A stretch of 40,917 nucleotides of DNA from Staphylococcus phage StB20. Below are positions 6,504-40,677 of this stretch, piece after piece (position 1 is the first letter of the stretch; every line of letters begins with the position of its first letter). Below the pieces are notes generated by a model, which saw only the letters and a program-made list of their open reading frames with translations, had not been told where the DNA came from and did not search any database. The stretch lies in the sequence record NC_019915.1; one strand, given 5' to 3'. Both the position numbers and the translations under genes were made by a program.

Positions 6504-7057
6504 ATGATGGAAATTTGGAAAGATGTTGTTGGTTATGAAGGTATCTACGAAGTCAGCAATAAAGGTCGAGTAAGAACTCATAAAGATAAAGTTAGTTGGT
6601 CAAAACGTTTAAAAAATGGAGACATTGGAAACAGCGATATTTAAAAGATAAAACGCCTAATGGTGGATATGTAAGAGTAGCGCTTTGGAAGAATGGAAAG
6701 CCTAAATATTTCTTAGTTCATAGATTAGTAGGTTTTGCTTTTATTCCAACTATCAAAGGTAAGGATTGCGTTAATCATATTGATGGTAATCCTAAAAATA
6801 ATAGTGTTGAAAATTTAGAATGGTGTAATCACTTAGAAAATAATAGACATGCTTTTGAGAACAATCTTATAGATACGCAAAAGGCTGTTAAGTTAACACA
6901 CTTAGATTTAGGTATCCAATTAGAATTTGTAAGTATGTCAAAAGCTAGTAAATGGCTTGGGCGTAACACTGGATATTTAAGTGGTGTTTTAAAAAGAAAC
7001 AAATATATAGCTACCTCTAATGACGGTGAAAAATACCAAGTAGAGAAGTTGATATAG
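6504..7057 (+). pseudogene. Free-standing NUMOD4/HNH homing endonuclease, frameshifted (N-terminal 6504..6644 in one frame, remainder 6596..7057 in the -1 frame)
   Basis: N-terminus MMEIWKDVVGYEGIYEVSNKGRVRT is a NUMOD4 motif and parallels the intact paralogue at 38909 (MKEIWKDIKGYENYYMISNTGKVKS). The downstream frame carries the HNH part (NHIDGNPKNNSVENLEWCNHLEN). The frames overlap at an A6 run 6611..6616. Confidence 0.7.
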
Positions 7058-35876: not shown

Positions 35877-37259
35877 ATGATTATTAAAATGGGAGAAGTC
35901 GAAACACATATCAACCCTAGAAATGTTGATATAGGGGATATTGGTAGTCGTTTCTATACAGAAGATGAGAATACTGCATTTATCAGAATTAGAATTAATT
36001 ATAATGGCAGTCCAGTTGATTTAACTAAAACAGATATGAAACCTAAACTCGATTTATTTATGGAAGATGGTTCTGTATTCATTGATGAAACAATTGAAGT
36101 ATTAATTCCTGAAATTGGTTTGATCAAATATGACATACCTTCTAACGTGATTAAACACATTGGGAAAGTGAATTGTAAGTTATTTATGGACAGTCTTGAA
36201 CATTCCGTTCATGTAGCTAACTTCTCATTCACTATTGTTGATAGTGGCGTAGAAGAAGCAGTAGCCAAAGAAGTTAATTTAAATATAGTTAAAGATACAG
36301 TGAAACAAATCATGTCTGAAGATTTAGTTGATTTATTAAACGATGGTTTCAAAGATAAGTTAACTGGTGATTTAGAGAATTATTTATCTACACATAATGA
36401 AGAATTTAAAGGTCCAAAAGGTGACAAAGGACCTCAAGGAGAACAAGGTCCACAAGGGTTGCAAGGAGAACAAGGTATTCAAGGAGAAAAAGGAGAACAA
36501 GGTCCGCAAGGTGCTACTGGTCCACAAGGCCCACCTGGAAAAGATGGTAGAGATGGCGTCGACGGTAAATCTTTTGCTTATGATGACTTCACACCAGAAC
36601 AACTTGATAAATTAAAACCAGAATTGCCAGATTTTTCAAAGTGGCAGAAATATAAGTTGACTAATGATGATGGTAACCAAATAGCTACTTTCGACAGTGA
36701 TAATAGAATGACCAATGAAAACCTACTGTCTACCCCAACAGGTTTTTATTATAACTACGAATATGACGATTCCCCTAATGGTTCCGAGGGGGTTGTTTAT
36801 GTAATGGAATATACTGATGAGTGTAAAAAAGTATACTATTCTTCATATAGGTATAACGATTTATATGTTAAAACTTATCATCCCGATTTTGGATGGCTAG
36901 AATGGGAAGAAATAAGTAATGGCTACACTGATACTGGTTGGATTCCACTAGCAATTAAAAATGACTATGAAATAATCACTAACCTAAATTATGAACAGTC
37001 TTATCGTGTGATTGATTATGGTAATTTTAAAAAAGTATCTGTTCGTTTAGGCGTAATTGATAATTCGCCGAGTAACCACAGCGTTGTCGCATCTATCCCT
37101 GAATACCTCAACCCATACGATGTTTTTGGTTATGGAGTGTCAACTACTCAAGGTGGTAGACCTGTAACAGTAACAATAGTTGACGGCGATATAATGTTGT
37201 ACTCTAACAGTTTCGCCAGTTCTATGAACACTTACTATCAAGGAGAATGGATAATATAG
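35877..37259 (+). CDS. Tail fibre protein with a collagen-like triple-helix region and a C-terminal globular (receptor-binding-like) domain
   Basis: 460 aa. RBS TGAGGTGGATATATG. Gly-X-Y run (see repeat feature). Confidence 0.75.
36411..36570 (+). repeat. Collagen-like Gly-X-Y repeat tract (about 53 residues: [52 protein letters not shown])
   Basis: Uninterrupted G-x-y triplets in the translation. Confidence 0.85.
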
Positions 37260-37832: not shown

Positions 37833-38243
37833 TTGAAAATTAATTGGATGACACGTTTAAAAAACGGAACAACACTCACAGCTTTAGTAGGTGCTATTTT
37901 ATTATTTGCTAAACAAGTTACCGAAGCGTTTGGTATAGATATATCAAGTCAACTTGAAACAATCAGTAGTATTCTGGGAAGTATTATTACAATACTTGTA
38001 GCTTTAGGTATTGTTACAAACCCTAATACTAAGGGAGTTTCAGACGCTGGTATTGACTTCGAATTAAACAAACCACGTAACGAAAATACCCACCCTGTAC
38101 AGTTTAAAAGTGAATCAGGCGCAGTGAAACCTGAAGTTTTCGACACTAACGAATCGTTTACTGATGATTCTGATGAAGAAGAATTCGAATTTAATAATGA
38201 TGGAGGAGGCGCTCCAGATGAAAACACAATCTCAAATCAATAA
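37833..38243 (+). CDS. Holin
   Basis: 136 aa. TTG start after RBS AAAGGAG. Two TM helices ([12 protein letters not shown]; [15 protein letters not shown]) and a long acidic C-terminal tail. Overlaps the lysin start. Confidence 0.75.
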
Positions 38244-38842
38244 ACGTTTAAGAGATTATAAAAACGGTGTAGTAGATAGTCCATACAGAGTTAAACATTG
38301 GACGAGTTATGACGCTTCCTTTGGTGCTATGGAACCAGGTTGCATTGATAAAGACCGTGCTTATCACGCACAGTGTATGGATTTGGCGATAGATTATGTA
38401 ATGTGGTTAACTGATAATCAAACAGAGATGTGGGGCGATGCTAAAAGCTCTATAAAAAACAAATTCCCTAAAGGGTGGAAGATTGTAGAAAACAAACCGT
38501 CAACGATACCCAAAAAAGGTTGGATAGCTGTATATACAGCTGGAACCTATTCACGTTATGGGCACATTGGTATTGTATATAATGGTGGTAATACGAATAG
38601 CTTCCAAATTTTAGAACAAAATTGGAATGGCTGGGCTAATAAAAAACCTAGCTTACGATGGGATAACTATTATGGTTTAACACATTTTATAGTTCCACCG
38701 GTAGCGAAAGAAATAGAAGAACCTAAGAAAGATGTAAAATCAGCTCCTAAACAGTCAGTTAAGAAAAATAGTAGTATCAAAGTTAACACGCATCATATAA
38801 AAGGTTGGACTATGACTAAAAGAGGTCGTAAACCTAAAGGTG
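38218..38842 (+). CDS. Endolysin exon 1: CHAP peptidase domain, linker and the first residues of the amidase_2 domain (5' splice boundary +/-3 nt)
   Basis: RBS GGAGGAGG lies 8 nt before ATG 38218. CHAP Cys/His context (CMDLA...GHIGIV). The protein ends ...[12 protein letters not shown] immediately before an in-frame stop. It continues logically into VIHNDAG at 39776. Confidence 0.75.
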
Positions 38843-39775
38843 TATAATAGTGCAAATCCCCTTCATATATAGTATAATACCTGTATAATGACTTAGGAGA
38901 GGTATTATATGAAAGAGATATGGAAAGATATAAAAGGTTATGAAAATTATTATATGATTTCTAATACAGGTAAGGTTAAATCTTTAAAGAGAGTTATTAA
39001 GCACGGCGGTTCAAAGACTAAAACGCTCCCCGAAACTATTTTAAAACCAAATAAAGTTAATTTCGGGTATTTACAAGTTACTTTAAACAAAAACGGAAAA
39101 AGAAAGTGTAAGTATATTCACAATTTAGTTATGGAAACTTTTGTTGGTCCAAAAAAAATAGGATACGAAGTGAACCATAAGAACGAAAACAAAGAGGATA
39201 ATTCTTTGGAAAATTTAGAATATTTGACTTGTAAAGAAAATAACAATTACGGTACTAGGATACAAAGATATGTTGAAAAGGCTAAAAATGGAAAACGTAG
39301 CAAAAAAATTAAAGGAACTCATATAATAACTGGAGAAATCATATACTTCCCTTCTATATCTGAAGCTAGAAGACAAGGATATGGAAAACATATATCTGAA
39401 GTTTGCAGAGGTTATAGAAATCACTGCAATAATTACAAATGGGAATTTGTATAAGCACTGCATATATAGCGATGTATATGTACTAAAAACATAAATTGCT
39501 TTGAAGAACCTTAGAGCCTTAATACCACAATAAAGCTGAAAAGACTTTTTGACGGTTTAACAATTTTAAGGATTGGTTTGTTTAGCAGCACTACCCCTAA
39601 GTGGAGACATATGGGGAATGTTCAACGACTAGAGGATTGCGTCCTCGTAGGTTTCAAGTGAAATCGAAAGAAGAACTATCTCACGTAGATAGAGACATAT
39701 AGTCTGGTCACGTCTTGTAATGAGAGTGCTAGGAATTAACCTAGAGTTAGACTAACGACCTAACAAAACAAAACG
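38843..39775 (+). mobile_element. Group I intron (about 930 nt, boundaries approximate) interrupting the endolysin gene and carrying a homing endonuclease ORF
   Basis: The exon reading frame is restored exactly across it (KGV | VIHNDAGT). P7-like complementary strands GACTAGAGG (39614..39622) and ATAGTCTGG (39697..39705) and GNRA-type loops (cgaaag) lie 3' of the HEG. Confidence 0.65.
38909..39454 (+). CDS. Intron-encoded NUMOD4/HNH homing endonuclease
   Basis: 181 aa. RBS AGGAGAGG. N-terminal IWKDIKGYENYYMISNTGKVKS (NUMOD4). HNH region VNHKNENKEDNSLENLEYLTCKENNN. Confidence 0.85.
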   Translation: MKEIWKDIKGYENYYMISNTGKVKSLKRVIKHGGSKTKTLPETILKPNKVNFGYLQVTLNKNGKRKCKYIHNLVMETFVGPKKIGYEVNHKNENKEDNSLENLEYLTCKENNNYGTRIQRYVEKAKNGKRSKKIKGTHIITGEIIYFPSISEARRQGYGKHISEVCRGYRNHCNNYKWEFV

Positions 39776-40614
39776 TAGTTATCCATAACGATGCCGGTAC
39801 AATGAATTCTAAACAATACTATAACAATTTGGTAAACGCTGATTACAATAGGTTAGCACGAGGTATAGCTCATGCATACGCTGATAGAAACGGTATTTGG
39901 GAAGCTATATCAGAAGATAGAATTGCTTGGCATGTTTCTGATGGCGTTCAACCAGGTTCAGGTAATTTTGAAACTTATGGAATTGAAGTTAATCAATCAA
40001 TGTATGTAAGTGATAAAGATTTCCTTAAAAATGAACAAGCAGCTCTTAAATTCGCAGCGCATAAACTTAAAAAGTGGGGGTTACCAGCTAACAGAAATAC
40101 TGTTCGTTTACACAACGAATTTAGTTATACAGCTTGTCCTCATCGTTCAGCTAAATTGCATACTGGTATTGATCCAACAAAACAAGCATGGACTAAAGCG
40201 ACACAACTTAAGTTAAAAGATTACTTCATTAAACAAATTAGGGCGTATATGAAAGGTGATACACCTAAGGTTACTACGGTCAAAAATAAACCTGGTAGTG
40301 CTTCTACTCCTGCTAACAGACGAGATATGAACGGTTGGAAAATCAATAAGTATGGAACTTATTACAAATCAGAAGTAGCTCATTTTACGCCAAACACGCC
40401 TATTAAAACTCATTATGTTGGACCGTTTAGAAGTTGTCCTGTGAGCGGTGTATTACAACCCGGACAAACGGTAAGATACGATACCGTATGTAAACAAGAT
40501 GATCACGTTTGGATTAGTTACACAGCCTACAATGGCAAAGATGTGTGGTTAGCAGTAAGAACATGGGACAAAAATACAGATAGTTTAGGTAAGTTGTGGG
40601 GGACAATTAAATAA
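39776..40614 (+). CDS. Endolysin exon 2: remainder of the N-acetylmuramoyl-L-alanine amidase (amidase_2) domain plus a C-terminal SH3b cell-wall-binding domain
   Basis: The frame is open from 39751. VVIHNDAGTMNS...GIAHAYADRNGIWEAISEDRIAWHVSDG...YGIEVNQSM is the amidase_2 core. The C-terminal WKINKYGTYYKSE...VWISYTAYNGKDVWLAVRTWD is SH3_5-like. Confidence 0.8.
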
Positions 40615-40647: not shown

Positions 40648-40677
40648 AGGGTAGTCCTAGCGACTGCCCTATTTTTT
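40648..40677 (+). terminator. Rho-independent terminator after the lysis module (AGGGTAGTC-CTAGC-GACTGCCCT plus TTTTTT)
   Basis: 9-bp stem (one G·U), 5-nt loop and a T6 run. Confidence 0.8.

Follow-up and report, generated by a model that had tools for sequence, protein, structure and literature searches.

The genome of Staphylococcus phage StB20 (NC_019915.1; "the window" below means the whole 40,917-nucleotide (nt) stretch that was analysed) carries an endolysin gene that has very probably been invaded by a mobile, td-like (IA2-like) group I intron, in what is a StB20-like staphylococcal siphovirus. The gene is divided by an insert whose counterpart position is empty in the closest phages, the insert encodes a member of a known endonuclease family and ends in an RNA core with homology to the T4 td intron, the helices of this core covary across lineages, and intron and exons have discordant identities to their nearest relatives. 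An earlier interpretation made from the letters alone (the sequence-only reading) had proposed an endolysin split by a group I intron carrying its own HNH homing endonuclease; the finding is confirmed as real, correctly interpreted and ordinary in kind, with modest extra interest coming from a P3 helix that was not found and a proposed non-canonical 5' junction.

An insert with an endonuclease gene divides the endolysin

The window represents a siphovirus of the StB20-like / S-CoN_Ph25-like type, whose hosts are coagulase-negative staphylococci. The last 25 kb of the window are 95.5% identical to Staphylococcus phage S-CoN_Ph25 (91% of the query covered) and 90-93% identical to phages StB20-like and S-CoN_Ph18-24, and the lysin is uninterrupted in all of these closest genomes. 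In this comparison, the window appears as an intron-plus allele inside an otherwise intron-minus phage lineage. Global alignment to the uninterrupted StB20-like endolysin placed positions 1-624 of that gene at window positions 38218-38841 and positions 625-1464 at 39775-40614, leaving an insert of exactly 933 nt and upholding the proposed split; a GTA present at both ends (38842-44 and 39775-77) makes the exact limits of the insert ambiguous.

The two halves match consecutive parts of the uninterrupted lysin. The CHAP-bearing open reading frame (ORF) spans 38218..38847, with a TAA stop at 38845-38847, and the frame beginning VVIHNDAG (39775-40614) matches Amidase_2 and SH3_5. Joined, the exons encode a CHAP-Amidase_2-SH3_5 protein of 487 amino acids (aa) that is 93.4% identical to the StB20-like lysin. 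The sequence-only reading had taken GRKPKGV as the end of the CHAP domain, which is mistaken: CHAP ends near residue 135, and RKPKGV forms the first residues of Amidase_2. In the joined protein, the Amidase_2 match covers residues 203-331 (profile positions 2-130), its score goes up from 50.4 to 54.7 bits, and the match is complete only once the exons are joined. Since this match begins at residue 203, in exon 1, the intron lies inside the amidase domain, six codons into it and just ahead of the VIHND histidine, rather than in the linker that follows CHAP.

The ORF within the insert passes both relevant Pfam cut-offs (NUMOD4, 57.0 bits against a cut-off of 23.4; HNH_3, 46.1 bits against 24.8), and its residues 5-179 align with the I-HmuI structure 1U3E (E=1.7e-13), retaining the H of NHKN and downstream N residues; its earlier identification as a NUMOD4/HNH endonuclease is thereby borne out. 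A search of 5.8 billion proteins returned a 95%-identical cluster and many homologues at 55-75% identity. Among seven homologues whose contigs were read, six are located between two halves of a lysin gene: the order holin, CHAP, HNH, Amidase_2/SH3_5 was found in four contigs, an M23 peptidase replaces CHAP in one, and one has a glucosaminidase/GW lysin. The homologue P0044 (46% identical) has no lysin context.

Kinship with the td intron and covariation of the RNA core

A 320-nt RNA core (39455..39775) directly follows the endonuclease ORF on its 3' side. A covariance model (CM) of the 3' domain, built exclusively from five staphylococcal copies, matched T4 td (record L017, 1293-1452) with 69.1 bits and E=1.6e-18, over the full model length and with zero non-standard pairs. 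The match aligned P7, P7.1, P7.2, P8, P9, P9.1 and P9.2, and its last model position coincided with the td terminal G (L017 1452). The same model gave 71.5 bits for the Silviavirus (Romulus) intron and a weak 17.6 bits for the phage K lysK intron. Judged by these alignments, the 3' domain of the intron and its counterpart in the self-splicing T4 td intron are homologous. The presence of P7.1 and P7.2 between P7 and P3', a hallmark of subgroup IA, makes the subgroup look IA2-like.

Homologous introns are found in phages 85/X2 (80% identical), in vB_Sau_P68 and PG-2021 phages (77%), in 6ec-like phages (74%), in phage PSU6 (87% over the core, ORF-less) and in metagenome or genome contigs (L020-L030). 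When five lineages were compared, 82 pairs in 15 helices were paired in 98.3% of cells, with 13 pairs changed on both sides; none of 500 shuffles was as good, and slid registers gave 0-2. Across nine lineages, the proportion of paired cells was again 98.3% (72 pairs, 13 helices), and 24 pairs were changed on both sides, where shuffles gave 6.3 +/- 2.0 and slid registers 0-4. Covariation was observed in 12 helices, while P4 and P7 are invariant in all lineages compared, as expected of a catalytic centre. The group I nature claimed by the sequence-only reading is therefore supported both by the td match and by helices that covary in nine lineages. The ORF-less copy is natural and comes from phage vB_SurM-PSU6 (L005 ~2513-2827), where it occupies the same lysin position.

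P4, P5, P6, P7, P8 and P9 were all found in canonical order, with compensatory changes in P5a, P5c, P6, P6a, P8 and P9 (Table 1). The conserved R/S elements of P7, the guanosine-binding helix, are present (GUUCAACGACUA, 39620-31; AUAUAGUCUG, 39697-706) and align to td P7 in the CM match. Of the P7 strands quoted in the sequence-only reading, GACTA and TAGTC do pair, but the GAGG that follows belongs to the P7.1 hairpin. An alternative architecture with GCUUU as P3 was ruled out by the perfect P4 of Romulus (UGCUAA/UUAGCA), and the change in 6ec strengthens P4. Plain minimum-free-energy folds of the region were uninformative.

At the 5' side, the two P1 strands flank the ORF, so the endonuclease gene lies in the P1 loop; this loop is 611 nt long in the window, gene included, and consists of the 5 nt AAAAC in the ORF-less PSU6 copy. 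In phage 85, P1 reads GGCGU/GCGCU, where a compensatory change has turned U-A into C-G. At 38839-38841, intron-less alleles have GCT (Ala) and the window has GGT (Gly), whose middle G improves pairing to the guide sequence (G38840-C39458); the replacement would be consistent with selection for P1 and also with co-conversion in the course of homing.

Table 1 Coordinates of the endolysin locus and of the elements of the probable intron.
Feature	Position	Strand	Remarks
Holin gene	37833..38243	+	Pfam Phage_holin_1, 67.2 bits; overlaps the endolysin start
Endolysin exon 1: CHAP, linker, first six Amidase_2 residues	38218..38842	+	CHAP 46.2 bits; 3' end proposed, anywhere in 38841-38844
P1 5' strand GGUGU	38839..38843	+	Pairs with guide sequence 39455-39459
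Probable group I intron, td-like (IA2-like)	38843..39775	+	933 nt; not in closest phages
Promoter-like site TTCATA, 16-nt spacer, TATAAT	38862..38889	+	10/12 consensus positions; count in region not above shuffles; weak, putative
Possible Shine-Dalgarno-hiding hairpin	38875-82 / 38900-07	+	Centroid helix, z=-1.5; weak, putative
Shine-Dalgarno GGAGAGG	38896-38902	+	
Predicted HNH homing-endonuclease gene (NUMOD4 + HNH_3, I-HmuI-like)	38909..39454	+	181 aa; in P1 loop
Internal guide sequence GCACU (P1 3' strand)	39455..39459	+	Immediately after the ORF stop codon
P2 hairpin GCAUAUA / UAUAUGU	39460..39481	+	3 pairs changed on both sides
A-rich segment ACUAAAAACAUAAAU	39482..39496	+	Site of P3 5' strand in relatives; no partner found
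P4-P6 domain	39497..39621	+	Covariation, except in invariant P4
P4	39497-500 / 39584-87	+	Invariant
P5	39506-10 / 39575-79	+	
P5a	39517-22 / 39566-71	+	4 pairs changed on both sides
P5c	39532-35 / 39545-48	+	3 pairs changed on both sides
P6	39588-90 / 39619-21	+	1 pair changed on both sides
P6a	39594-97 / 39613-16	+	2 pairs changed on both sides
P7 GACUA / UAGUC	39627-31 / 39700-04	+	Invariant; encloses elements to 39704
P7.1	39632-46	+	4 pairs changed on both sides (nine lineages)
P7.2	39650-65	+	2 pairs changed on both sides (nine lineages)
Purine run GAAAGAAGAA	39666-75	+	Place of the td P3 3' strand
P8	39676-92	+	
P9 (39709-28), P9.1 (39729-44), P9.2 (39746-64), 3' tail to G39775 (proposed terminal G)	39709..39775	+	Covariation
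Endolysin exon 2: remainder of Amidase_2, then SH3_5	39776..40614	+	Pfam matches and alignment
Terminator-like hairpin 3' of the endolysin	40648..40670	+	

Proposed splice junctions, the unfound P3 and rival explanations

Candidate junctions were taken as the cut positions permitted by collinearity with intron-less alleles, lineage by lineage, and are written here as last exon base and last intron base. The options were (U,C), (G,G), (U,U) and (A,A) in the window and in contigs L020, L023 and L030; (C,C), (G,G), (U,U) and (A,A) in phage 85; (U,G) and (G,G) in P68, PSU6, L025 and L028; (U,C) and (G,G) in 6ec; (U,C), (G,G) and (U,U) in L029; and (G,U), (G,G), (G,G) and (U,U) in Romulus, where the intron interrupts a different gene. 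A terminal G is possible in each lineage examined, and G39775 of the window aligns with the td terminal G. Since (G,G) is the sole option open in every lineage and agrees with this td-aligned terminal G, we would place the intron at 38843-39775, between G38842 as the last base of exon 1 and 39776 as the first base of exon 2. The sequence-only reading had held that neither junctions nor subgroup could be fixed from the sequence; the junctions have been narrowed by comparison, yet stay unproven, and the subgroup can now be described as above.

Two side observations concern junctions in related introns. The lysins of PSU6 and 6ec contain a second, canonical group I intron farther upstream, in the CHAP domain (L005 1552-1925 and L006 1589-1831; Rfam RF00028, 58.6 and 109.1 bits), and the junction of the PSU6 CHAP-domain intron combines U at -1 with a terminal G. 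In Romulus, the intron has a 3-nt repeat, GGU, at both ends, which excludes U at -1 in combination with a terminal G.

Several results weigh against a functional group I intron with these boundaries. Cleavage in group I introns normally follows a wobble U, and a G at -1 is unusual. The junction that is both in frame and compatible with a terminal G (38842|38843 ... 39775|39776) puts G, not U, before the 5' splice site. A U.G pair is present (U38843.G39455); under the (G,G) option, however, U38843 becomes the first intron base, and the -1 position is G38842 paired with C39456. A cut after U38843 combined with G39775 would yield GGU GUU AGU UAU CCA UAA, with one extra nucleotide, a frameshift and an early stop, and the same one-nucleotide excess follows from a cut after the wobble U in every lineage; the canonically cleaved, frameshifted junction of the window would read AAAGGTGTTAGTTATCC. 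A literature search on non-canonical group I 5' splice sites found nothing useful. A published account states that splicing of the Mh15-type intron still needs experimental proof (PMC9430571).

In the core itself, no Watson-Crick P3, the helix expected to form the P3/P7 pseudoknot, was found. The segments 39482-96 and 39666-75 stayed unpaired in constrained RNAalifold/RNAfold predictions with P7 masked, and a listing of all conserved complementary segments held no conserved complement to either. In the nine amidase-site lineages, AAAAACAU(A) at 39486-94 and GAAAGAAGAA at 39666-75 are both purine-rich and invariant except in L025, where the segment at the 5' P3 place is changed and the 3' segment has no matching change. 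P3 is a plain helix of 6-7 base pairs (bp) in td (UCUAUC/GAUAGA), in L029 (AAGGGUU/AAUUCUU, 7 bp) and in Romulus (AAAGGUU/AAUCUUU), and in the latter two it lies at the expected place, before AAU-UGCU (P4) and before P8. Each of the P3 candidates considered for the lysin introns (AACAU/AUGUU, CUUU/AAAG, GUUC/GAAC and ACU..AAAC/GUUU..AGU) clashes with a supported helix (P6, P5c, P7.2) or is missing in relatives. P3 has thus either been replaced by something non-canonical or been overlooked.

Finally, the covariance-model search for group I introns, a check named in the sequence-only reading, gave opposite answers for two models. Our own staphylococcal model matched td as described, whereas Rfam RF00028 had zero matches in the window at the gathering threshold, none at E<=10 in the 1-kb region, and, at E<=1, none in the PSU6 copy without an ORF. 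Because the T4 td intron, which is proven experimentally, escapes RF00028 at gathering as well, the miss of the window intron carries no weight.

If the junction and the absent helix are both taken at face value, the lysin-intron family would be a deviant group I ribozyme, operating without a Watson-Crick P3 and cleaving one nucleotide 5' of the U.G pair, with an exon that ends in G. We regard this as possible though rather unlikely; of the candidate junctions, the one after G alone is compatible, across the ten lineages examined, with both a lysin in frame and a terminal G. Were it true, an intron family so common and so easy to test could show which parts of the group I core cannot be dispensed with.

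The same difficulties could instead signal a decayed or inactive ribozyme, in which case the phage would make a CHAP-only lysin of 209 aa stopping at 38845, the amidase/SH3 part would be unexpressed or separate, and the locus would comprise two genes plus a selfish HNH cassette. Besides the unfound P3 and the frameshift and stop that the canonical splice rule entails, this explanation draws on the stop codon that exon 1 has of its own and on GenBank records, which annotate the lysin halves as separate coding sequences; CHAP-only fragments of related lysins are, moreover, lytic. We nevertheless consider it improbable. Compensatory changes in 24 of the 72 pairs imply that the RNA fold is still under selection, and exon 1 encodes the first six Amidase_2 residues. 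Ahead of the VVIHND strand, exon 2 has neither a start codon nor a ribosome-binding site, its first in-frame ATG being at 39802, and it differs from the intron-less allele by 50 synonymous and 17 non-synonymous codon differences. Together with the RNA covariation, this ratio and the missing start signals argue for one spliced lysin rather than two genes, and the two exons stay collinear and in frame in every lineage examined. Far less credible still is a free-standing HNH cassette, or some other non-intron mobile element, with a merely superficial likeness to group I introns. Free-standing HNH genes are common in phages, and the lack of an Rfam match would suit this explanation, but it is contradicted by the CM match to the T4 td catalytic domain over the full model length, by the copy of the same RNA that stands without an ORF at the same lysin position in PSU6, and by the covariation of the structured RNA independently of the ORF.

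Mobility of the probable intron and comparison with known systems

For the preferred mobile group I intron, we propose the following course of events. In the lysin transcript, the end of exon 1, GGUG(U) (38839-43), would pair with GCACU (39455-59) across the 611-nt loop, and the ribozyme core at 39455-39775 would then excise 38843..39775. Ligation of ...AAA GGU G to UA GUU AUC... would restore the frame of the 487-aa lysin, with a predicted spliced junction reading AAAGGTGTAGTTATCC. The HNH enzyme, I-HmuI-like in sequence, would probably be expressed from a promoter and a ribosome-binding site of its own and would nick lysin alleles that have no intron, so that repair copies the intron in; at the candidate target, the intron-less S-CoN_Ph25 / StB20-like lysin reads CCTAAAGCTGTAGTTATTCATAAC. 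The putative hairpin at 38875-82/38900-07 could mask the Shine-Dalgarno sequence in read-through transcripts, and similar pairings are readable in homologues. Every copy with an ORF has a helix that bridges it (38853-60 / 39441-49), with sequences that differ between copies; this helix is only weakly better than shuffles (z +0.2 to -6.1).

Identities of intron and exons are decoupled. The nearest copies of the window intron, which come from unannotated metagenome prophage contigs (L020-22) rather than phage records, are 96.7% identical over all 933 nt, while for the lysin exons of these contigs the identities are no more than 74% and 68%; the window exons are 91-96% identical to those of intron-less phages. 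Such decoupling is the trace expected of horizontal intron transfer, and the window copy would document a recent horizontal move by which the lysin intron of the phage 85 type reached a coagulase-negative-staphylococcus phage lineage that is otherwise without it. Many prophage contigs show the same intron-lysin arrangement. When genome and viral contigs were scanned for exact patterns, the only copies to come up were of the 85 type and the 6ec type, and none of them was identical to that of the window. In L020-22, a PTS EIIC/EIIB gene (L020 4951-5546) comes after the lysin, which suggests that these intron copies belong to integrated prophages at a chromosome junction.

Relatives in other settings extend the distribution of the family. 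In L028 (834-3224), an intron of the same family splits a lysin that has an N-terminal Peptidase_M23 and no CHAP, so the intron tracks the amidase target site rather than the CHAP module. L029 (888-3555) holds a higher-GC, divergent relative (75.6 bits) in a contig with a glucosaminidase/GW-type lysin, along with two HNH ORFs and a second, weak intron-like match at 2680-2823. The Silviavirus Romulus/Remus intron (L008 2196-2633) interrupts a gene that carries a tail-fibre annotation in phage VL10 and has the P7-P9 domain in common with the window intron; GUGU/GCAC was rejected as its P1, since the intron-less VL10 allele places the intron start 24 nt upstream. Rfam S808 (Staphylococcus sRNA 808) matches amidase exon 2 of phage 85 (L002 2865-3119, 259.7 bits) and of 6ec (L006 3792-4046, 212.2 bits), with no match in the window. 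Elsewhere in the window, a 460-aa ORF upstream of the lysis cassette (35877-37259, +) contains a collagen-like Gly-X-Y run and is probably a tail fibre, and a weak match to the intron 3'-domain model at 6930-7040 (+; 12 bits, E=0.07), inside ORF 6596-7057, is probably due to chance.

For annotation, these results favour one spliced 487-aa CHAP-Amidase_2-SH3_5 protein in place of two genes and an HNH gene, and the cloning of such lysins as enzybiotics requires the correct exon junction.

As the sequence-only reading had noted, intron-interrupted lysins are known in some staphylococcal phages. Group I introns have been reported in the lysins of about 20 of 205 staphylococcal phages, including 85 and G1 (PMC6507118), and lysin introns have been named in X2, G1, 85 and Mh15 (PMC9430571). 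The introns of the Dubowvirus phages 85, X2 and vB_SauS_Mh15 are the closest described parallel: they occupy the same gene at the same position (KG|VVIHND), carry an ORF of the same 546 nt and the same ribozyme, and are ~80% identical to the window over 98% of the intron. They differ in belonging to another phage lineage with S. aureus hosts and in ~20% divergence, which includes the compensatory P1 change. The phage K lysK intron lys-I1 (I-KsaI) is likewise a group I intron with an HNH ORF in the amidase part of a CHAP-amidase-SH3b lysin, but it is inserted after IAWHTG and has a canonical U.G at its 5' splice site. At the insertion site of the window intron, phage K is "empty" (GGAATGGTAATACAC), and its ribozyme is only distantly related, as the 17.6-bit score above indicates; lysK was dropped as an experimental reference for the junctions, its intron being at a different site.

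Farther afield, the T4 td intron (subgroup IA2, I-TevI) resembles the window element as a phage intron with a homing endonuclease, and its 3' catalytic domain could be aligned helix by helix. It differs by a clear P3 and a U.G pair at the cleavage site, by an ORF annotated as a GIY-YIG enzyme rather than an HNH enzyme, and by the position of that ORF in the P6 region instead of the P1 loop; the P5 arm of the window intron is, for its part, enlarged (P5a-c) relative to td. I-HmuI, from the DNA-polymerase intron of Bacillus phage SPO1 (PDB 1U3E), is homologous to the window enzyme over its full length, which takes in a NUMOD4-like N-terminus and an HNH motif, and both reside in phage group I introns, but the host gene and the host genus are different, and the residue before the catalytic His is Asn in the window enzyme and Asp in I-HmuI. 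Placed among these systems, the window element is a member of the phage 85-type intron family in a new phage lineage, the family itself being already known.

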